Sequence record: NC_022968.1
From: Escherichia phage 4MG
DNA length: 64,000 nucleotides
Reading direction: 5' to 3' (one strand)
Under the pieces are notes generated by a model. That model made no database searches and was not told the origin of the DNA. It saw nothing but the letters and a program-made list of their open reading frames with translations. Below are positions 3,480 to 58,022 of this stretch, piece by piece. The position numbers and the translations under genes are program-made. How positions within the stretch are numbered: the stretch's first letter is position 1; each line of letters starts with the position of its first letter.

Positions 3480-3799
3480 CATTAAAACAAGAATCTTTCG
3501 ACATCCTGAAAAATGAATTGCAACGCCGTGTGGATAAGGTTCCACAGGTTATGGGGTTTGATGCCTATGGTATCACCGCCGCAGATATGGGTCTCGATGC
3601 CGATTTCATTAACCGACTGATCACTGAAGCCTACCTTGGTATCTTCACTGCCGAAGAAGCTGAAGAAATGATCGCATTCCAGCAACGCTTTGCTGATCGC
3701 ACCGCGATCCTTGAAAAGGTTGTGGAAGAAGCTGTTGGAAAGGTAATGGAAGCCAACAAAGAAAACATCCTGAAAAAACTGCAAGAAGGGGTTAAGTAA
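3476..3799 (+). CDS. hypothetical protein
   Basis: ORF with ATGA overlap, RBS AAAGGAGAGG. Confidence 0.5.
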   Translation: MTLKQESFDILKNELQRRVDKVPQVMGFDAYGITAADMGLDADFINRLITEAYLGIFTAEEAEEMIAFQQRFADRTAILEKVVEEAVGKVMEANKENILKKLQEGVK

Positions 3800-4764
3800 T
3801 GACAGAAGCTGTAATCGCTCGCGTAGTAGCGGATAGTGTTTCTCCGCAGGGACAACGTATTACAACTTTTGAGCTTGAATACCCGCGTATCATCCACAGT
3901 GAGTTGATGACGCACCGACTATTCAGTCGTAATGCTATGAGTAGCCGTGCAATTCCGATCAAGAAGATGATCGAGCAGGTTCAGCAAAATCCAGCAATGC
4001 CTGTTAAGTTCGGGAAGAACCAGCCCGGTATGCAAGATGCAGGTGACCATAACCAGTTGATCGATGCGGGTTATGAACCCGCAACTTGGTGGGGACTAGC
4101 AGGGCTGAGTGCAGCACGATTTGCTGAGGCATTTGCAGAAGCTGGGTATCATAAGCAGATTGCAAACCGCCTTCTGGAGCCATTCCAGCGTATGAAGACG
4201 GTCCTGACTGCTACCGACTTCGAGAACTTCTGGTGGTTGCGTGTGGATAAGGATGCAGATCCTACCATCTTCGCACTGGCTGAAGCCATGAAGAAGGCCT
4301 TTGATGAGTCCTTACCAGAACTTCTGGAACCGGGACAGTGGCATACGCCGTATGTTGATCACGTCTACGAATACGAAGACATTGACGACAAAGAATGTGT
4401 TGTGTTTGTTGGGTATTGTGTTCTTGACGAGAACGACAAGCCTGTTATGCTTACCGTTGAGGAAGCAAAGGCAATATCTGCCTCGTGTTGTGCTCAGGTC
4501 TCTTACCGTGTCCTGAACAACACAAAAGATAAGGCGCTGGACATTTATGGGAAACTTTTGAGCGGTAATAAGGTTCATGCTTCTCCGTTCGAACACCAGG
4601 CTACGCCACTTGTTCATGCTTCCTGTGATGAACTGGAGAATGGGGCATTCGCTTGGGAAGAGGGCGTTACCCACGTTGACCGGAATGGGATGTTCTGGAG
4701 TGGTAATTTCCGTGGTTGGTCACAACACCGCCAGTTAGTTCCCAACAACGTAGTTTCAGGTTGA
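3799..4764 (+). CDS. putative flavin-dependent thymidylate synthase (ThyX-like)
   Basis: THRLFSRNAMSSR resembles the ThyX RHR-x7-S-x-R signature; sits in nucleotide-metabolism module; 321 aa is long for ThyX. Confidence 0.4.
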   Translation: MTEAVIARVVADSVSPQGQRITTFELEYPRIIHSELMTHRLFSRNAMSSRAIPIKKMIEQVQQNPAMPVKFGKNQPGMQDAGDHNQLIDAGYEPATWWGLAGLSAARFAEAFAEAGYHKQIANRLLEPFQRMKTVLTATDFENFWWLRVDKDADPTIFALAEAMKKAFDESLPELLEPGQWHTPYVDHVYEYEDIDDKECVVFVGYCVLDENDKPVMLTVEEAKAISASCCAQVSYRVLNNTKDKALDIYGKLLSGNKVHASPFEHQATPLVHASCDELENGAFAWEEGVTHVDRNGMFWSGNFRGWSQHRQLVPNNVVSG

Positions 4765-4845
4765 CAAAGGTTCCAGTAATCCGTATCTTGGTTGTATGAA
4801 TTGCGGGGAGAGTTTCTCCCCGATTATAGGCAGAATGGAGAATAC

Positions 4846-5322
4846 ATGAGTAAAACAAAACGCAAACCTACCCAACACATTTCGGTCACTTTGGACTTCC
4901 TGAGAACCGTTCCTGGATTCGATGTGACACAAGAAAGTGGACTCCGCGCTGCCCTTTATGCAGTAGGATTCCAAGTCTCCGACAGTGAGGGTAATCCTAA
5001 GCAAGTAACTATGCTTAACAACAAAAATGTACGATGTGCTAATTTGCCATATTTGTACCGTAAGACCACGATCTTTGTCGGTGACATGCGTCCGGACTAT
5101 CCGTATGCAAAAATTTATAACGGCGTTGACATCCTTGATGTCGGTGTGTATTCAGAGCGCGACATGGAGTTCGTTATCGACTTGCCTTATGACATCCCGG
5201 TAAACGAAAAAGTCAACACCCGTAAGTACACAAAACGCGGTGACCGCCCAGACTCGTTCGATATTACGTTCAATAGTGAAGATGAAGCACGTCTGAGTGA
5301 CGCATTTGGTCTGGGGGACTAA
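4846..5322 (+). CDS. hypothetical protein
   Basis: Track ORF 4792-5322 trimmed to ATG with GGAG RBS; preceded by hairpin CGGGGAGAG-TTT-CTCCCCG. Confidence 0.5.
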   Translation: MSKTKRKPTQHISVTLDFLRTVPGFDVTQESGLRAALYAVGFQVSDSEGNPKQVTMLNNKNVRCANLPYLYRKTTIFVGDMRPDYPYAKIYNGVDILDVGVYSERDMEFVIDLPYDIPVNEKVNTRKYTKRGDRPDSFDITFNSEDEARLSDAFGLGD

Positions 5323-28714: not shown

Positions 28715-28787
28715 TTCGCTTGACAGCCAGTTAATGCTGGCTTAAAATCACTGCATACAAAACAAATCCATAAAGGAGAAATAAAAC

Positions 28788-28958
28788 ATGCTGTCATTAA
28801 CCACTATCGCTTTTACCCTGAACCTTATCGCGGCGGTACTAAATACCTACATCGGTTTCCAGGGAAAGTCTACGTTCAATCTCGGCCTTGCGATGTTTAA
28901 CTGGCTCCTGACAGGGGCATTTCTGGCTGCGTTGGCACACGAGACAGGGTTATAATGA
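28788..28958 (+). CDS. small membrane protein (56 aa)
   Basis: Below track cutoff; AAAGGAGAAATAAAAC RBS. Confidence 0.35.
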
Positions 28959-34805: not shown

Positions 34806-34834
34806 ATGCAAAAAGCCGGGGATTATCCCGGCCT
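34806..34834 (-). terminator. rho-independent terminator (minus strand)
   Basis: Minus-strand hairpin GGCCGGGATAATCCCCGGC followed by TTTTTGCATAT, just after the stop of gene 34853-35062. Confidence 0.7.
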
Positions 34835-37775: not shown

Positions 37776-37794
37776 GCCGGGGACGTTCCCCGGC
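37776..37794. repeat. GC-rich leader hairpin (family member)
   Basis: GCCGGGGA-CGT-TCCCCGGC, 8-bp stem and 3-nt loop. Confidence 0.65.
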
Positions 37795-38082: not shown

Positions 38083-38103
38083 GCCGGGGAGGTATTCCCC
38101 GGC
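38083..38103. repeat. GC-rich leader hairpin (family member)
   Basis: GCCGGGGA-GGTAT-TCCCCGGC. Confidence 0.65.
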
Positions 38104-38147
38104 CTCAAAAAGATATTAACCGATCCGCGCCTTGCTTGCAAGCGTTT

Positions 38148-38737: not shown

Positions 38738-38756
38738 CCGGGGACAATCCCCGGCC
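38738..38756. repeat. GC-rich leader hairpin (family member)
   Basis: CCGGGGA-CAA-TCCCCGG. Confidence 0.65.
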
Positions 38757-38768
38757 TGTTAGAATACT

Positions 38769-39110
38769 TTAGCCGATCTGGTTTTCAGAGTCAACCGGGA
38801 AAACATCATTTACAATCTCAACAACTACCGCGAAAACATCCAGAGCATCACGGATCGGCAGGCTATCCGCTTGCTTTACATAGCCTTTCACGCTTTCAAG
38901 CTGATAAGAGATGTAATGAGCTTTGCAGGGTTTTTGTGTGCCGTGATCAATGCTGTTTTCCGTGCGGATCATGATATCCAGGCGATCCCCGTTCACAGCG
39001 TCATTGATATGACAAAAACGCAATAACGTTTTATCATCGAAACGACGAAAATCACATTTTGCTTTGTCAGTAACGCCAGCCAGGAAGAAAAATTTATTTG
39101 CCAGTTCCAT
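38769..39110 (-). CDS. hypothetical protein
   Basis: ORF. Confidence 0.45.
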   Translation of the reverse strand: MELANKFFFLAGVTDKAKCDFRRFDDKTLLRFCHINDAVNGDRLDIMIRTENSIDHGTQKPCKAHYISYQLESVKGYVKQADSLPIRDALDVFAVVVEIVNDVFPVDSENQIG

Positions 39111-39261: not shown

Positions 39262-39280
39262 CCGGGAACCGCTCCCGGCC
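39262..39280. repeat. GC-rich leader hairpin (family member)
   Basis: CCGGGA-ACCGC-TCCCGG. Confidence 0.6.
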
Positions 39281-39321
39281 TTGTCTGATAATTATTGATC
39301 AACCGTTCCCCGTTGTCAAAT

Positions 39322-40839: not shown

Positions 40840-40873
40840 TTGCATAGAAAAAAGGCCGGGGATCGTCCCGGCC
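40840..40873 (-). terminator. rho-independent terminator (minus strand)
   Basis: Minus-strand GGCCGGGACGATCCCCGGCC followed by TTTTTTCTATG, just after the stop of gene 40879-41082. Confidence 0.75.
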
Positions 40874-40878
40874 TCTTG

Positions 40879-42711: not shown

Positions 42712-42729
42712 GCCGGGAACCGTCCCGGC
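42712..42729. repeat. GC-rich leader hairpin (family member)
   Basis: GCCGGGA-ACCG-TCCCGGC. Confidence 0.6.
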
Positions 42730-42770
42730 TTGAGTAGAATTATCGGCTTTTCTTGCCGGGGTGTCAATAC

Positions 42771-43085: not shown

Positions 43086-43104
43086 GGCGGGAACTATTCC
43101 CGCC
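43086..43104. repeat. GC-rich leader hairpin (family member)
   Basis: GGCGGGAA-TAG-TTCCCGCC. Confidence 0.6.
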
Positions 43105-43144
43105 TTGATTTGTAATATAATCGATCTAGCTTAGGATTGCAAAT

Positions 43145-43342
43145 TTATTTTGCAACATAATCCGGGTTAGGTGTACGGCGTTCAATGATCCGGGCTTCGT
43201 ACCCGTTGCGGCGATAATCTTTCTTTGTTGCTCTCGCATCAGACCAATTTGCCTCGGCGCAGGAATCCTCCCAGCCGTTGCAGGTTCTTTCCTGTACGAT
43301 GATTTCATAAAGCCATTTATTAACACGCGGAGCCTTTGCCAT
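43145..43342 (-). CDS. hypothetical protein
   Basis: RBS GAGGTAAACGAAATG; preceded by a hairpin-containing promoter. Confidence 0.5.
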   Translation of the reverse strand: MAKAPRVNKWLYEIIVQERTCNGWEDSCAEANWSDARATKKDYRRNGYEARIIERRTPNPDYVAK

Positions 43343-43373
43343 TTCGTTTACCTCGTTTTGTTTCGGTTTTGGT

Positions 43374-43403
43374 ATTATGCGCCGGATTCCCGGCGCTTGT
43401 CAA
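43374..43403 (-). promoter_or_regulatory. sigma70-type promoter whose spacer is a GC-rich palindrome
   Basis: Minus-strand TTGACA - AGCGCCGGGAATCCGGCG - CATAAT; spacer is a family hairpin. Confidence 0.5.
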
Positions 43404-43405
43404 AT

Positions 43406-43735
43406 TTATTTTCTTGCCATATGAGCAGCAAGCCGGGCGGCAACCTGGGATCGCTTATGCATTACCGGGATCGGCTTGCCGTTTGCGTCGTGTACATAGG
43501 ATACACGGGGCGCTTTGCGGTTGCGATAGCCTGCTTTTACTTCCAGCGTAACAACCGGGGCGCGTTCCATTTCAGCACGTTGATCGGCGGTGTCCTGGAT
43601 TGCTTCAACCATAACGCCGGGGATCACTTGCCAGCGTTTACCAGCAGGGGCGGCGGTGCCGTTGTCGATCACTTTGCCACCGTTAGATTTTGCAGCAGTA
43701 CGGGCAAGGGCGCGAGAATTGAAATAGTTATTCAT
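43406..43735 (-). CDS. hypothetical basic protein
   Basis: Track ORF trimmed to ATG (MNNYFNSRAL...). Confidence 0.45.
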   Translation of the reverse strand: MNNYFNSRALARTAAKSNGGKVIDNGTAAPAGKRWQVIPGVMVEAIQDTADQRAEMERAPVVTLEVKAGYRNRKAPRVSYVHDANGKPIPVMHKRSQVAARLAAHMARK

Positions 43736-43825
43736 GGTGTAACCTCGTTTAGTGTGGTTGTTTGTTTCGCTTGTCAATGTCCGGGAAGTATAACCCCAGA
43801 CATTAACCAGCGTCAACAATTATTT

Positions 43826-44143: not shown

Positions 44144-44162
44144 GCCGGGGCGCGTCCCCGGC
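44144..44162. repeat. GC-rich leader hairpin (family member)
   Basis: GCCGGGG-CGCGT-CCCCGGC. Confidence 0.65.
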
Positions 44163-44195
44163 TTGTTAGTAAGATAGCCGATCCGAACCTGGGGA

Positions 44196-44726
44196 TCAAG
44201 CTACTTTTAAAATATTTTTCAGGCCGTCGATATTAGACAGCAGATCCGCGCCTGCTTTCTTTGCAGCTTCCAGGGCTTCGGAGTCGATCCCGTTTTCCTT
44301 GTAAACATCTTTTGCAGCGTCGATCAATGTTTCATCGTCATCATAGGAATAATCGAAACTACATCCCATCGTTTCGCCGTCCAGGAGTGTGATCCCGTTT
44401 GCGGTAGCAGTTACCACGAAACCATAATCACTAGCGTTTAAATCGCGCTCTAATGCCTCTTGTGCGGCCTTGTAAGCGTTAGCCGATGGATTCTCATCAC
44501 CCTGGCTTATCAGGTGTGCGATCCTTTCTTTCAAGCTGTATTGAAGCGGGATCGCGTACTTGTAAGAGTTTCGGCAGGCTTGCGGATTTTTAACCGTTAC
44601 CCCACCTTCGTGATCGTCGGTCATTTCCCATTGATCCGCGAACCCGGTAAACTCATTAAAGTTAACAACGTTAACAGTAAAATCAATGCCGTTTGAAGAG
44701 TAGTTGAAAGTTTCGATAGTGTCCAT
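44196..44726 (-). CDS. highly acidic protein, first gene of a minus-strand unit
   Basis: 176 aa rich in Asp/Glu; RBS AAAAGGTAAAGCAAATG; directly downstream of a promoter. Confidence 0.5.
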   Translation of the reverse strand: MDTIETFNYSSNGIDFTVNVVNFNEFTGFADQWEMTDDHEGGVTVKNPQACRNSYKYAIPLQYSLKERIAHLISQGDENPSANAYKAAQEALERDLNASDYGFVVTATANGITLLDGETMGCSFDYSYDDDETLIDAAKDVYKENGIDSEALEAAKKAGADLLSNIDGLKNILKVA

Positions 44727-49232: not shown

Positions 49233-49529
49233 TTACTTCTTAATCAGTTCATCAAGAGGAATGTACAGACTGGTTTTGCCGGGTCTTTCTACCACTTCGA
49301 GGTAACCTAGTGCCTCTAAAGTTTTAAGAGACCTCTGTACACTTCGTGGGCTAACACTAGTTGCTTCCGCAATGGTGTTAACTGACTCTACAAACTCTGC
49401 TCCCTTGCTCTGGAAGAACTGCCACCTGAACTTAATATACAGGTAGACCCGGAGGTCTGTTGACGAGACCTCCGGATTTGACAGGATTCCATACGAGCAT
49501 AAAACACTGAAAGACTTATCTATTCTCAT
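49233..49529 (-). CDS. helix-turn-helix DNA-binding protein
   Basis: IAEATSVSPRSVQRSLKTLEALGYL resembles a winged-helix HTH. Confidence 0.45.
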   Translation of the reverse strand: MRIDKSFSVLCSYGILSNPEVSSTDLRVYLYIKFRWQFFQSKGAEFVESVNTIAEATSVSPRSVQRSLKTLEALGYLEVVERPGKTSLYIPLDELIKK

Positions 49530-51645: not shown

Positions 51646-52577
51646 TACACCACCTTGTTGAGCATCGCAGCAATCTTAGGCAGGCCCATCTCTGTCTGAA
51701 TGATCAGTTGGGTCAGCGCCTTTTCCATTTTCTTCGACACAATGATGAAGTTGTCTTTAGCAAAACCAACTTTAAGGTCCATAATCAGGATCGCCTTTGG
51801 TTCACCAGACAGCTTCTCTCCGGTCAGAGAGCAGGTATTGCGAATATACTTCGCTTTGAACTGTGCATAGGTCACAGAAACGTTCATACCAGCGTCGGAG
51901 AATGTCTTGCAGTAGTTGGCGTAGGCCAGCGCTACAGCAACATCATCAGGCAGTTTTTGCTTCTCTTCCGCTGGTGCTGTAGTTTCTTCTGCAACCGGAG
52001 GCTGTTTATGGAAGTGCTGTTCAGCAAGTTCCATTGCGGAAGACGCGGTGCGCTCTTTAGGTTCCGGGTGACGTGGAAAATCTTCTGCAACAACAGGTTT
52101 TTCTACAACTTCTGAAGTATCTACTGGCATTTCTTTCTCCTCTTTTGGAATATATTTGGTTTTCAGTTTTTCCATGTGCTCTTTTGACATGTTGAGCATC
52201 ATTGCTTGTACGATTTCACGGTCAAGTGGCTCAATTATAGTGATTGCCGTCTTCTTGTCAACCAAACAATCTTTCAGTTCGTTAGCACGTTGAAGAACAA
52301 CACAGACGTTACCACGTACATAACCCTTCTTATCGTTGATACGCTCAACGGTTGGGTACAGCGGGTCTTTTTCACCATGCACAGAGCGCATACTGAAGTC
52401 CATATTGGTATAGTCACATTTACCCATACCAAGAAGCTTTTCACCCATCATGAACCAGTCATCAAGGGTCAGACTGAATTCCAGGCCACGTTTCTTTGTG
52501 CGTTCAACCTTTTTACGGTAACGTTCCTCTAGACTTTTGATCTCACTGGCGGTAAATTTCTTTTTCACATCAAACAT
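51645..52577 (-). CDS. hypothetical protein with degenerate HNH_3-like segment
   Basis: ERINDKKGYVRGNVCVVLQRANELK resembles the C-terminal half of HNH_3; minus-strand AAGGAG RBS. Confidence 0.45.
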   Translation of the reverse strand: MFDVKKKFTASEIKSLEERYRKKVERTKKRGLEFSLTLDDWFMMGEKLLGMGKCDYTNMDFSMRSVHGEKDPLYPTVERINDKKGYVRGNVCVVLQRANELKDCLVDKKTAITIIEPLDREIVQAMMLNMSKEHMEKLKTKYIPKEEKEMPVDTSEVVEKPVVAEDFPRHPEPKERTASSAMELAEQHFHKQPPVAEETTAPAEEKQKLPDDVAVALAYANYCKTFSDAGMNVSVTYAQFKAKYIRNTCSLTGEKLSGEPKAILIMDLKVGFAKDNFIIVSKKMEKALTQLIIQTEMGLPKIAAMLNKVV

Positions 52578-52647
52578 TTTCTACTCCTTGGGTTATTCCC
52601 GTTCTTGTTGGGAGAATTATCCTGGATTGTGTCCCCACTGTCAACAC

Positions 52648-56931: not shown

Positions 56932-57621
56932 GTGTCTGGAGATCGCTGGATTCTGTATCGTCAACAGCATGAGCTTGGGTTTTATGAGCTTAAACTCTGC
57001 CTGAACAGTGGTGATGAGTGGGCGTATGCCCCTATCATCTCTCTTGGCTCTGGAAGCCAACAGGCAGATTTTGCTGCTGAGGATTATTTTAAAAGGTCTT
57101 TACCTTTGCTAGGAGAAGAGGGCTACGACAGAAGTATAGACCTGAAGCAGAAGAGAAGCTATGTTGAGGTGGAGACAGACACACAACGCAGACACCTTAG
57201 TTTTATCGAAAGGGGAATATTCCCCTTTGGTGAATGGGCGGGTGTTGCTTTCGAGGACTGTCCCCCACCCCTGCTGTTGTGGTATATCAACGGGGGTGAT
57301 TTTGATAACCTCAAAATTTCTTGCTCTCTGAAGGCAGCGTGTCTTGGTGCGTATCTTTCAATTCAGGATCGTGCTGATTATTACAAACCATCAAGGGACA
57401 AGGTGAGTCTTTCTGGAACCATATTACGCTGTGAAAGGTTCAGAGAGATGTACAGCGTTCATATGGTAACAGAAGACAGGAATTACTTGACCTTCCTGAG
57501 CAAGACACAATACGAATGTGGTGATGAGGCCTGTTTTAATGGCTACATTATTGAGAACATGGAATGGGGTGGTATCTGCTACAATCGTGGTTCTTCTAAA
57601 AAACCTGCTAAAAACATTTGA
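56932..57621 (+). CDS. hypothetical protein
   Basis: GTG start after CTAAGGGGGCGTT. Confidence 0.45.
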   Translation: MSGDRWILYRQQHELGFYELKLCLNSGDEWAYAPIISLGSGSQQADFAAEDYFKRSLPLLGEEGYDRSIDLKQKRSYVEVETDTQRRHLSFIERGIFPFGEWAGVAFEDCPPPLLLWYINGGDFDNLKISCSLKAACLGAYLSIQDRADYYKPSRDKVSLSGTILRCERFREMYSVHMVTEDRNYLTFLSKTQYECGDEACFNGYIIENMEWGGICYNRGSSKKPAKNI

Positions 57622-57646
57622 CAGCCTCTTCGGAGGCTGTTAATCT
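57618..57646 (+). promoter_or_regulatory. sigma70-type promoter whose spacer is a hairpin (may also act as a weak terminator)
   Basis: TTGACA - GCCTCTTCGGAGGCTGT - TAATCT. Confidence 0.4.
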
Positions 57647-57680
57647 TTGTGCATACCAAACAGAACGAGGATAAACTCAA

Positions 57681-58022
57681 ATGCAAATTACTGAAACTCT
57701 GAATGACCAACAACGTCTGATGTCTCTTGGACACAAAGAGGCTCTGCAACAGAACTTCCCGATCTTCAACGAACTGACCACCGATGGTTATGAGGTTGAG
57801 TTCTATTATGTTGATGGTTTTGGTGGCCTGACCATCGTTCCAAGCGTGAAGCGTATCCGCGTTAAAGCGAACCAGGAAGCGCTGTCTGACGTGGACTACT
57901 GCTCTAAACTGGCACATAAGGTCCGTCAATCCTTTGAATCTCGTCTGACAAATCCGAAATTCCTGTCAGGTCAGAAGATCTCCAGTGCATTCAAAAACAA
58001 GAAGGGGAAATACCGTGTATAA
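57681..58022 (+). CDS. hypothetical protein
   Basis: RBS GAGGATAAACTCAA. Confidence 0.5.
   Translation: MQITETLNDQQRLMSLGHKEALQQNFPIFNELTTDGYEVEFYYVDGFGGLTIVPSVKRIRVKANQEALSDVDYCSKLAHKVRQSFESRLTNPKFLSGQKISSAFKNKKGKYRV

Follow-up and report, generated by a model that had tools for sequence, protein, structure and literature searches.

GC-rich hairpins fill the spacer of host-type promoters in some short intergenic gaps of Escherichia phage 4MG

Intergenic regions are 40-100 bp long in the 64,000-nucleotide stretch of Escherichia phage 4MG DNA analysed here (NC_022968.1; the window), and in some of these short gaps a GC-rich hairpin fills the spacer of a host-type promoter. This layout was present at 43374-43403 on the minus strand (site 1) and, on the plus strand, at 57618-57646 (site 2) and 28720-28748 (site 4). 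Another junction, at 4761-4822 (site 3), has its hairpin elsewhere (Table 1). The hexamers match the sigma-70 consensus at 11 of 12 positions at site 1 (spacer of 18) and site 4 (spacer of 17), and at 9 of 12 at site 2, which also has a TGn extended -10. The upstream ORF has its stop codon before the hairpin, and at sites 2 and 3 this is a TGA within TTGACA. An AT-rich tract holds the upstream stop at site 1 (GAAAATAAAT, with TAA), lies upstream at site 2 (CTAAAAACAT, with the TGA stop inside the -35), and is weaker at site 4 (TTTGTGGTAATTCGC). At all sites an SD sequence, GAGG or GGAG, is followed by a gap of 7-9 nt and then an ATG. The cassette hairpins had predicted RNA folds of -12.2 to -17.6 kcal/mol (z -1.6 to -5.1).

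Hairpins in the window were found in the spacer, upstream of the -35, and downstream of the -10; the hairpin precedes the -35 at junctions 14825, 27867, and 31926 and follows the -10 at others. An Rfam search of the whole window found no known RNA family, and a Pfam search of the ORFs on either side of sites 1 and 2 gave no match. We found no paper on transcript mapping in the Vequintavirinae.

Table 1. Promoter, hairpin, and leader features in the window.
Feature	Coordinates	Strand	Remarks
Site 1 AT-rich tract GGCAAGAAAATAAAT, upstream of -35	43404-43418	-	contains TAA stop of upstream ORF (43406-43408)
Site 1 -35 hexamer TTGACA	43398-43403	-	invariant, 8 phages
Site 1 spacer hairpin GCGCCGG-gaat-CCGGCGC	43379-43396	-	100% paired in 8 orthologs; 3/7 pairs compensatory
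Site 1 -10 hexamer CATAAT	43374-43379	-	ATAAT invariant; first C is last stem base
Site 1 CA-rich leader, SD GAGG, ATG of downstream 65-aa ORF	43340-43373	-	
Site 2 -35 TTGACA	57618-57623	+	TGA 57619-57621 is stop of upstream 229-aa ORF
Site 2 hairpin ACAGCCTC-ttcg-GAGGCTGT	57621-57640	+	conserved, 13 phages of 3 genera; terminator-like on both strands
Site 2 extended -10, TGT + TAATCT	57638-57646	+	TA and final T invariant, 13 phages
Site 2 leader TTGTGCATACCAAACAGAAC, SD GAGG, ATG (57681)	57647-57683	+	
Site 3 promoter TTGACA-17-TATCTT	4761-4789	+	TGA 4762-4764 is stop of upstream thymidylate synthase gene
Site 3 hairpin CGGGGAGA-gtt-TCTCCCCG	4804-4822	+	14 nt downstream of -10, outside spacer; stems covary among genera
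Site 4 spacer-hairpin promoter TTGACA-GCCAGttaatgCTGGCT-TAAAAT	28720-28748	+	hairpin 28725-28742; ATG at 28788
Early-family hairpin	37776-37794	-	degraded promoter upstream
Early cassette TTGCAA-17-TAATAT (38113-38141), hairpin 38083-38103	38083-38141	-	
Early cassette TTGACT-17-TAAAGT (38766-38794), hairpin 38738-38754	38738-38794	-	
Early cassette TTGACA-17-AATAAT (39291-39319), hairpin 39262-39278	39262-39319	-	orthologous promoter annotated in PVP-SE1
Early cassette TTGACA-17-GATAAT (42739-42767), 9 nt, hairpin GCCGGGA-cggt-TCCCGGC (42712-42729), AAAGGTAAA-ATG	42712-42767	-	
Early cassette TTGCAA-17-TATATT (43114-43142), hairpin GGCGGGAA-tag-TTCCCGCC (43086-43104)	43086-43142	-	
Early cassette TTGATC-17-TATCTT (44171-44199), hairpin GCCGGGG-acgcg-CCCCGGC (44144-44162)	44144-44199	-	

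Spacer hairpins were present in excess over chance. The count was of sites at which an exact TTGACA and a -10-like hexamer are 16-19 nt apart and enclose a perfect stem of 6 bp or more; there were three in the window compared to a mean of 0.115 in dinucleotide shuffles (n=200; maximum 2). Thirty IMG/VR matches to the pattern TTGACAAGC-N14-GCATAAT served as a natural control: the stem was fully paired in all six matches on contigs of Vequintavirinae size, and among the remaining 24 promoter-like matches, which are unrelated, not one had a fully paired stem. A narrower IMG/VR scan added close relatives alone.

The pairing at site 1 is under selection. The sequence-only reading had proposed a promoter of the form TTGACA-hairpin-CATAAT at this site, and this was borne out as TTGACA-aGCGCCGGgaatCCGGCG-CATAAT, with an 18-nt spacer and a perfect 7-bp stem (RNA fold of -15.6 kcal/mol, z -4.3). 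TTGACAA and ATAAT were unchanged in eight phages from two genera while the loops varied freely, and the compensatory changes in the stem were GC to CG (twice) and GC to GU to AU, with G·U intermediates on the coding strand in PVP-SE1/YZU14. The observed pairing, types of change, and covariation score were reached in 0 of 500 shuffles. There is no U-tract after the hairpin (AUAAUACC), and canonical intrinsic termination is therefore unlikely at site 1.

At site 2 the stem runs into both promoter elements. The proposed TTGACA-GCCTCttcgGAGGCtgt-TAATCT with its perfect hairpin is real, but the -10 hexamer alone matches the consensus at only 3 of 6 positions. The 8-bp stem (ACAGCCTC/GAGGCTGT; RNA fold of -17.4 kcal/mol, z -5.1) shares ACA with the -35 and TGT with the extended -10 (TGnTAATCT). 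It was 100% paired across the 13 phages, with a single varying pair (UA, UG, or CG); of the 12 distinct sequences, five have a G·U intermediate on the coding strand. The outer stem (ACAGCC/GGCTGT) was invariant in all 13 because of its overlap with the -35 and the extended -10. The formal covariation test, with one variable pair, was weak, the observed score being reached by 121 of 500 shuffles. An independent terminator scan placed site 2 as the top terminator-like call in its region, and the hairpin is followed by a U-rich tail (5 T in 8). At the corresponding position in Av-05 (Avunavirus), after the same ATPase gene, there is a plain hairpin with a T-run and no -35.

Site 4 has the same layout, and site 3 does not. 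The counterpart of site 4 in GAP31 retained the stem with an altered loop; the sense strand of site 4 has no U-tract. The sequence-only reading had also placed a spacer palindrome near 4804-4835, and there the claim failed: a -35 set 16-18 nt ahead of the proposed -10 would have only 0-2 of 6 matches, and we rejected the proposed -10 (ATTATAGG), which is not conserved among relatives. The hairpin itself (CGGGGAGAgttTCTCCCCG, 4804-4822) is real. The -35 at 4761 was invariant in four genera and the -10 was TATCTT in four of five aligned phages (TATTAT in Avunavirus). Because the conserved promoter is the one at 4761-4789, the hairpin falls downstream of its -10.

A family of similar hairpins accompanies promoters of the early region, where seven cassettes lie at 37.7-44.2 kb among hypothetical genes of 60-190 aa. 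The sequence-only reading had suggested a possible phage-wide regulatory device linked to a hairpin family. The link is real but of another kind: in most members the -10 comes first and the hairpin follows it after 9-12 nt, outside the spacer. The core CCGGG..CCCGG occurred eight times in the early region, and hairpins with the same core are followed by a T-run at 34815 and 40853. A sense-strand U-tract is absent at the early-cassette hairpins.

We considered whether GATCGG before the -10 of the early cassettes was a Dam-related signal and rejected this, since the motif was at expectation (16 versus 14.4). GATC was generally over-represented (384 observed, 246 expected), and the motif is most simply explained as inherited among paralogous cassettes.

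The edges of the cassettes coincide with gene-module boundaries in at least three genera. Homology with relatives began at the first T of the -35 (57618, for distant relatives, or 43403) or ended at the ATG (57680, or 43335 relative to PVP-SE1-type phages). Since homology starts at the -35 edge or stops just past the ATG, the cassette marks the boundary between modules. Breakpoints in the early region were also at cassettes (37794/38055, 42736/43335, and 43826/44116). That at 37794, relative to LNA4, GAP31, and PVP-SE1, was exactly at the edge of the 37776-37794 hairpin, 42736 is in the 42712-42767 cassette, and 44116 is by that at 44144-44199. FENT2 had an extra gene inserted within the leader. 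We infer that recombination gave rise to these breakpoints. Breakpoints at cassette edges are also expected simply from the intergenic placement of the cassettes.

The cassettes are like elements described in another phage group. PeSLs (promoter-early stem-loops) were described in the T4-like coliphages RB49 and phi1 (Arbiol et al. 2010, PMC2839356), with the stem-loop in any of five positions: most commonly it lies over the -10 or in the spacer between the two boxes, but it can also be upstream or downstream of them (PMC2839356). With the stem-loop of one PeSL, lacZ expression fell to a similar degree as with rrnB T1, and ~13,000 Miller units were measured for a clone of a wild-type PeSL promoter (PMC2839356). 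Reading the RB49 DNA directly, we found an identical spacer-hairpin layout, e.g., TTGACA-GGGGATCggtGATCCCC-TATAAT. In the RB49/phi1 PeSLs and the 4MG cassettes alike, the upstream stop is in an AT-rich tract, the sigma-70 promoter is close to TTGACA-N17-TATAAT, a stem-loop rich in GC is present, and the downstream gene has its SD and ATG; both are in short gaps between small ORFans, near insertions or replacements between close relatives. Krischvirus PeSLs match the 4MG cassettes in layout, in having the -10 and the ATG 37 nt apart, and in a leader of the form CATACC..AAAC..GAAC. However, 4MG is a Seunavirus-like myophage of the Vequintavirinae and not one of the Straboviridae; the stems are GCGCCGG, ACAGCCTC, and GCCGGGG in 4MG compared to GGGGATC in RB49; and the commonest hairpin position in the 4MG window, unlike in RB49/phi1, is downstream of the -10. 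Promoter and terminator or attenuator activity in vivo and mini-circles from recombination between cassettes are further marks of PeSLs, and would be expected of the 4MG cassettes if they work in the same way.

We searched the window using an nhmmer HMM built on six RB49 cassettes. Sites 1, 2, and 4 were not detected, and the only matches were at 52647-52602 (minus strand, E 0.004), 54380-54347 (minus strand, E 0.06), and 43823-43764 (minus strand, E 1.9). The leader motif CATACCGAAACGAAC was not above chance in the window (6 observed, 1.72 expected; 57652-57666 with 3 mismatches, and five chance-like occurrences elsewhere). Based on these results, we dropped homology to the RB49 PeSLs and regard the 4MG cassettes as being of the PeSL kind by analogy only. 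PeSLs in PST/T4 and nt-1/KVP40 are promoter plus stem-loop elements associated with indels in hyperplastic regions, and include 'half' elements (Comeau et al. 2014, PMC4122927). The 4MG window likewise has a 'half' element, at 43764-43789. Unlike in 4MG, the stem-loop in those phages is just upstream of the promoter and more AT-rich, and the promoters are off the sigma-70 consensus (PMC4122927).

Within the same subfamily, sigma-70-like early promoters were reported for the Certrevirus phages CB7, CR3, CR8, and CR9 (PMC7344957) and are also annotated in PVP-SE1 and rV5. These are of the same type, AAAA..(TG)TTGAC..N17-19..TATAAT, and are concentrated among short early ORFs. A hairpin in or beside the promoter is unmentioned in the Certrevirus reports (PMC7344957), and in the PVP-SE1 record the counterparts of sites 1 and 2 carry no annotated promoter or terminator.

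The hairpins have much of the form of intrinsic terminators: a stop codon is directly followed by a stem of 6-8 bp, rich in GC and closed by a 4-nt loop, and at site 2 there is a U-rich tail as well. The Av-05 homolog is a canonical rho-independent terminator. Unlike intrinsic terminators, the hairpins of sites 1 and 4 and of the early cassettes have no sense-strand U-tract. Promoters of the coliphage N4 virion RNA polymerase also contain a short GC hairpin, which is extruded in single-stranded form and used by the phage polymerase, with no -35 or -10 boxes. As in N4, early promoters of 4MG include a short GC hairpin, but we rejected an N4-type promoter because the hairpin in 4MG is flanked by invariant sigma-70 boxes. 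No gene for a phage RNA polymerase was reported in the related phage CB7 (PMC7344957).

We favour the view that the stem-loop is selected as sense-strand RNA, an argument that comes from G·U pairs at two positions. Coding-strand G·U intermediates are A·C mismatches on the other strand, which favours the sense-strand RNA as the form that is preserved. The GC-to-CG swaps keep the palindrome in the DNA equally well, and a role at the DNA level (a cruciform, a recombination target, or a symmetric protein site) may therefore also exist. A count of strand asymmetry among near-perfect hairpins of five genomes, in which chance intragenic hairpins predominate, gave 12 GT and 10 CA.

Based on the comparisons above, we think that each site is probably, though by no means certainly, a compact composite cassette of the PeSL type: a promoter with a nested terminator or attenuator for the upstream transcript that is also a recombination joint. 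Promoter activity and termination or attenuation are both predictions from sequence. A combined terminator and promoter, one of the possibilities raised by the sequence-only reading, fits the hairpin after the stop codon, the compensatory stems with sense-strand G·U, the terminator-like site 2, the terminator in Av-05, and the precedent in RB49/phi1, but not the lack of a U-tract at site 1. A GC-rich spacer might weaken the promoter, which also counts against the composite reading. The cassette, ~65-80 bp long, would consist in order of an upstream stop in or beside an AT-rich tract, the -35 TTGACA, the GC-rich hairpin occupying the whole 17-18 bp spacer, the -10, an unstructured leader rich in CA, an SD, and an ATG. 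As duplex DNA it would act as an early promoter for host RNA polymerase. Sigma-70 chiefly senses the length of the spacer and barely its sequence, which leaves the spacer free for another signal, and the compensatory changes show that what is usually taken for no more than a ruler of length can bear a second, selected signal. Transcripts from the promoter itself would start downstream of the hairpin and hence lack it. The hairpin would be present only in RNA coming from the upstream gene, where it could fold as a stable stem-loop and stop or attenuate the upstream transcript, or shield its 3' end. Site 2, with its U-rich tail, may be a partial intrinsic terminator, and site 1, without one, an attenuator or a barrier to exonucleases. 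The outcome would be that each gene forms an insulated expression unit of its own, with very little DNA between genes. One short cassette lies beside many small genes, and for this reason it could also be a patch of homology for gene swap, insertion, or loss.

The palindrome might instead be an operator at which a dimeric phage DNA-binding protein represses or times the promoters, and we consider this very unlikely. The dyad symmetry is at just the position bound by many repressors, a winged-HTH protein is encoded at 49233-49529 (HTH_36, E 8e-9), the outer stem of site 2 is invariant, and the early-region core is repeated. Nonetheless, this proposal of the sequence-only reading found no support. 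The spacer palindromes of the three sites are unlike in sequence and none recurs elsewhere in the window, and nothing ties the winged-HTH protein to the sites. The stem letters of site 1 change with pairing retained and the loops vary, which is the signature of a folded strand and not of base-specific recognition, and the G·U/T intermediates disrupt the symmetry of the DNA in many phages. The invariance at site 2 is accounted for by the two promoter elements.

We similarly give little credence to the hairpin being mainly a recombination signal or substrate (the target of a phage recombinase or resolvase, or a replication pause site) that drives cassette shuffling, with no role for the RNA form. 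The coincidence of cassette edges with homology breakpoints is consistent with this, as is a crossover inside the loop in RB49, for which the authors offered, as speculation, a protein that recognises the GGGG..CCCC stem (PMC2839356). However, most breakpoints are at the -35 edge or the ATG, and only 37794 and 42736 abut a hairpin. The tolerance of sense-strand G·U points to RNA, and the hairpins with the same core and T-runs are ordinary terminators in the same region.

A supercoil-dependent switch, in which cruciform extrusion at high negative superhelicity inactivates the promoter or alters the spacer geometry, is highly improbable in our view. Early transcription would then depend on the topology of the DNA injected by the phage. 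Perfect inverted repeats with 4-nt loops lie exactly between the hexamers, and the compensatory GC-to-CG swaps retain the palindrome on both strands. In work by Horwitz and Loeb in 1988, a synthetic E. coli promoter of such a design was reportedly regulated by cruciform extrusion. Arms of 6-8 bp are short for stable extrusion, though, and those here are only that long; a G·T intermediate in one arm means an A·C mismatch in the other. Most members of the hairpin family are outside the spacer, and thus placement in the spacer is not required for whatever preserves the hairpins.

That a terminator hairpin and a promoter merely coincide for want of space, the overlap having no function, is equally improbable: 40-100 bp must hold both signals and other junctions have the hairpin before the -35 or after the -10, but the same exact register, flanked by invariant sequence, is found in different genera, the hairpin size is tuned to a 17-18 bp spacer, and three sites were found where 0.115 were expected. 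This explanation differs from the composite cassette solely by denying a benefit of nesting.

PeSLs have so far been described only in T4-like phages; that large myophages of an unrelated subfamily have this composite element too suggests that the solution is a general one. The composite cassette would insulate many small early genes and permit their exchange. We also suggest, tentatively and with more doubt than belief, that the spacer-hairpin cassette is a portable gene-expression adaptor that moves or recombines across genera of the Vequintavirinae, and possibly to or from the T4-like Krischvirus. If so, new ORFans would arrive ready-made with a promoter, an insulator, and a ribosome site. 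A second tentative suggestion is that the nested hairpin couples promoter strength to DNA supercoiling or to upstream read-through. In practical terms, the orthologous promoters and terminators are absent from the PVP-SE1 annotation, and the cassettes can serve to delimit transcription units precisely and to choose insertion points when therapeutic phages of this group are engineered.

Three promoters in the window have a hairpin nested within them (Table). The sequence-only reading had listed three promoters with a palindromic spacer; this held for two, sites 1 and 2, and not for the third, site 3, and a scan of the whole window added another, the 28720 site. At site 1, the 18-nt spacer between TTGACA and CATAAT is almost wholly occupied by GCGCCGG-gaat-CCGGCGC. 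The promoter scored 11/12 in a promoter scan, the best of its region, and the hairpin folds as RNA at -15.6 kcal/mol (z -4.3). At site 2, the 8-bp stem (ACAGCCTC/GAGGCTGT) takes in the ACA of the -35 and finishes with TGT, forming an extended -10 (TGnTAnnnT) with TAATCT; the fold is at -17.4 kcal/mol (z -5.1). Three sites in the window combine an exact TTGACA with a -10-like hexamer 16-19 nt away and a perfectly matched stem of 6 bp or more, compared to a mean of 0.115 and a maximum of 2 in 200 dinucleotide shuffles.

Positions and composition of promoters, hairpins and related elements in the window
Feature	Position	Strand	Composition
Site 1	43403-43374	-	TTGACA / AGCGCCGGGAATCCGGCG / CATAAT
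Site 2	57618-57646	+	TTGACA / GCCTCTTCGGAGGCTGT / TAATCT
28720 site	28720-28748	+	TTGACA-GCCAGttaatgCTGGCT-TAAAAT
Site 3, conserved promoter	4761-4789		TTGACA-17-TATCTT
Site 3, hairpin	4804-4822		
T-run hairpins 8-34 nt upstream of a -35	14825; 27867; 31926		
Cassette hairpin core with T-run	34815-34832; 40853-40874	-	CCGGG..CCCGG (TTTTTGCATATC; TTTTTCTATGC)
Half-cassette	43764-43789	-	TTGACAAGCG joined directly to CA-rich leader AAACAAACAACCACACTAAAC, GAGG, ATG at 43735
Early-cassette promoters with GATCGR(Y) directly before -10	38113-38141; 38766-38794; 43114-43142; 44171-44199	-	GATCGGY in three; GATCGAT at 43114-43142
Perfect 10-bp palindrome	49449-49475		CCGGAGGTCT-n7-AGACCTCCGG
Promoter at head of leftward block	52616-52647	-	GTGTTGACA-17-GATAAT, A-rich upstream tract
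Perfect 12/12 promoter	52234-52261	-	TTGACA-16-TATAAT

The three promoters share a common plan: an upstream stop codon just before or within the -35, an A/T-rich upstream tract, the nested hairpin, and a leader of 31-39 nt, rich in C and A and poor in G (ACCAAAACCGAAACAAAAC; TTGTGCATACCAAACAGAAC; CACTGCATACAAAACAAATCC), followed by a Shine-Dalgarno sequence (SD) and ATG. Their transcripts would begin past the hairpin, so the hairpin could be present as RNA only on transcripts coming from upstream. At site 1, a TAA stop lies 2 bases ahead of the -35. At site 2, the TGA of TTGACA is itself the stop of the upstream ORF (57619-57621), as it is at site 3 (4762-4764); gene end and promoter start overlap, as if by design, at these two separate junctions.

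The hairpin at site 3 is real but is not in a spacer. There is no acceptable -35 at a distance of 16-18 nt before the suggested -10 (ATTATAGG), which is unconserved in a four-genus alignment. In that alignment, a different promoter, TTGACA-17-TATCTT, is invariant or nearly so, placing the hairpin 14 nt downstream of its -10. In Erwinia phage pEp_SNUABM_01, the orthologous promoter (~168-197 of the segment) has a spacer hairpin, AGCCC-ttcg-GGGTT, in addition to the downstream one; this small hairpin may be a chance occurrence.

The spacer hairpins are under selection for pairing. For site 1, we aligned the orthologous sequences of eight phages belonging to Seunavirus and Henunavirus. TTGACAA and ATAAT were invariant and the loops were free (gaat, gaaa, gaga, gcaa, aggc, cgat). 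The stem was GCGCCGG/CCGGCGC in the window, LNA4, and GAP31, GCGCCGG/CTGGCGC (one G·U) in PVP-SE1 and YZU14, GCGCCAG/CTGGCGC in pEp_SNUABM_01, GCGCCCC/GGGGCGC in KE23, and GCCCCGG/CCGGGGC in Hena1. All 56 of 56 cells were paired, with both-sided changes in three of the seven pairs, and none of 500 column shuffles reached the observed pairing, pair types, or covariation score. With the partner offset by 1-3 columns, pairing fell to 25-46%. As a natural control, we took 30 IMG/VR matches to TTGACAAGC-N14-GCATAAT; pairing was full in all six from contigs of 146-149 kb or otherwise related, and in none of the 24 unrelated matches.

At site 2 (13 phages of Seunavirus, Mydovirus, and Henunavirus), pairing was 100%, with an invariant outer stem and one inner pair that was UA, UG, or CG; further IMG/VR relatives agreed with this pattern. 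With just one varying pair, the formal covariation test was weak. At both sites the intermediate pair is G·U on the sense strand; the opposite strand, or the second arm of a cruciform, would have A·C there. This modestly favours sense-strand RNA as the selected structure.

The window cassettes resemble the promoter-early stem-loops (PeSLs) of the T4-like phages RB49 and phi1, which lie between ORFans of hyperplastic regions and combine a sigma-70 consensus promoter and the AT-rich tract upstream of it with a GC-rich stem-loop, then SD and ATG (Arbiol et al. 2010, PMC2839356). PeSLs fall into five subclasses by stem-loop position, most commonly between the -35 and -10 or over the -10; the stem-loop of one PeSL lowered lacZ expression by an amount similar to rrnB T1, a wild-type PeSL promoter clone gave ~13,000 Miller units, and PeSL-PeSL recombination deleted or swapped ORFans and made mini-circles (PMC2839356). 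PeSLs were later extended to PST/T4 and nt-1/KVP40, with the stem-loop upstream (Comeau et al. 2014, PMC4122927). We examined RB49 DNA directly and found, for example, AAAGTTGTTGACA-GGGGATCggtGATCCCC-TATAAT-GCACACATACCAACGAG..AGGAGAATCAAAAATG, which is laid out like sites 1, 2, and 28720, and every feature that defines a PeSL at the sequence level is present in the window. The distance from -10 to ATG is 37 nt in RB49 PeSLs (3675-3742 and 4820-4891 of the segment) and at site 2 (57603-57683). Descent from the RB49 elements was unsupported: an HMM of six RB49 cassettes did not find sites 1, 2, or 28720 in the window, its best match being a generic early promoter (52647-52602, E 0.004), and a similar leader motif (CATACCGAAACGAAC in the RB49 PeSLs, CATACCAAACAGAAC at site 2) was not above chance by nhmmer or mismatch search. 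From these sequence comparisons, we would say that the window cassettes work like PeSLs and represent this type of element in a new lineage of phages, by analogy rather than demonstrated homology. An N4-type promoter was ruled out by the sigma-70 flanks.

Papers on Vequintavirinae describe sigma-70-like early promoters and do not mention hairpins (PMC7344957), the sequences orthologous to sites 1 and 2 carry neither promoter nor terminator annotation in the PVP-SE1 record, and our literature search found no paper describing PeSL-like elements in this subfamily. The main value of the finding is better annotation of Vequintavirinae transcription units, together with a clean example of selected structure within a promoter spacer.

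The palindromic spacers had been read as operators or as combined terminators and promoters, and the second interpretation was supported but not the first. An independent scan of 52-64 kb placed the site 2 hairpin first among terminator-like elements on both strands. In most relatives the MoxR ATPase gene directly precedes the site 2 cassette. After this gene, Escherichia phage Av-05 (Avunavirus; 847-888 of the segment) has AGCAGCC-taat-GGCTGCT plus TTTTCC with no -35, by sequence a plain terminator, whereas the TTGACAGCC..GGCTGT-TAnnnT cassette occupies this position in three other genera. This contrast hints at an older terminator around which the site 2 promoter was assembled, or at the opposite order. 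Site 1 lacks a U-tract and is therefore not called an intrinsic terminator; more cautiously, its hairpin would be an attenuator or a 3' exonuclease barrier.

The cassettes mark module boundaries. Over the surrounding 4 kb, identity is 92% with Escherichia phage vB_EcoM_LNA4, 91% with Cronobacter phage GAP31, and 79-84% with PVP-SE1, SSE121, and other Vequintavirinae of genus Seunavirus; a 148,567-bp IMG/VR contig is identical to the window at site 1. By GAP31 annotation, the small hypothetical genes at 34-52 kb form a leftward block, presumed to be the early region, with rightward transcription on the flanks. BLAST homology of site 2 with Mydovirus, other Seunavirus, and Henunavirus starts at query base 139 (57618), the first T of TTGACA, and in several phages is limited to the cassette alone (57618-57680), with different genes on both sides. 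Homology of site 1 stops at 43335, just past ATG, in 14 Salmonella and Cronobacter phages, and in Erwinia phages starts with the first T of the -35 (43403). Early-region breaks relative to LNA4, GAP31, YZU14, and PVP-SE1 (37794/38055, 42736/43335, 43826/44116) each fall at a hairpin, a -10/hairpin junction, or SD/ATG. LNA4 has 100 extra bases immediately upstream of the site 1 cassette. In Enterobacter phage FENT2 (47-316 of the segment), the site 2 leader contains an extra 62-aa ORF, after which the SD-proximal part (AAAGCGAGGATAAACTCAAATG) is repeated, an insertion inside the cassette itself.

It is possible that the hairpin is purely a recombination signal, but most breakpoints are at cassette edges and not within stems. 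An operator in the spacer, bound by a DNA-binding protein, is weakened by palindromes that differ and do not recur and by stems that covary; a winged-HTH protein is encoded, yet is unconnected to the spacer-palindrome sites. Short arms, G·T intermediates, and the location of most family hairpins outside the spacer likewise weaken the case for a cruciform switch in DNA.

The promoter-hairpin cassettes belong to a wider family, in which the spacer class is a minority in the window. At least seven related copies lie on the minus strand at 37.7-44.2 kb. In these early cassettes, a AAATAAAT-like tract is followed by TTGACA or TTGCAA and by a 17-nt spacer whose last bases are often GATCGGY. Next come a TAnnnT -10, 9-12 nt, the hairpin GCCGGGG-loop-CCCCGGC, ~10 nt, and AAAGGTAAA-N-ATG. 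The hairpin in this arrangement lies past the -10 and would fall at ~+2 to +6 of the RNA that starts there. Elsewhere in the window, T-run hairpins lie upstream of three -35 elements. Hairpins upstream, within the spacer, and downstream of the -10 thus make three positional classes of one composite element. Two hairpins with the cassette core and a T-run look like ordinary terminators punctuating the early block. The half-cassette, without a hairpin or a good -10, is kept in LNA4, GAP31, YZU14, and PVP-SE1 and looks like a site 1-type cassette minus its middle.

Four early-cassette promoters have a Dam site at ~-16 to -19. GATC is found 384 times genome-wide (246 expected) and GATCGG matches expectation; the motif before the -10 probably reflects common descent of the cassettes. 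The longest perfect palindrome of the window falls in the winged-HTH ORF (49233-49529, minus strand), towards its 5' end. It may serve as an origin or in autoregulation; the GAP31 homolog of this ORF carries the annotation "replication initiation protein". The promoter at the head of the leftward block is orthologous to an annotated PVP-SE1 promoter and scores highest with the HMM of RB49 cassettes. The perfect promoter ~380 bp further into the block is probably inside a gene.
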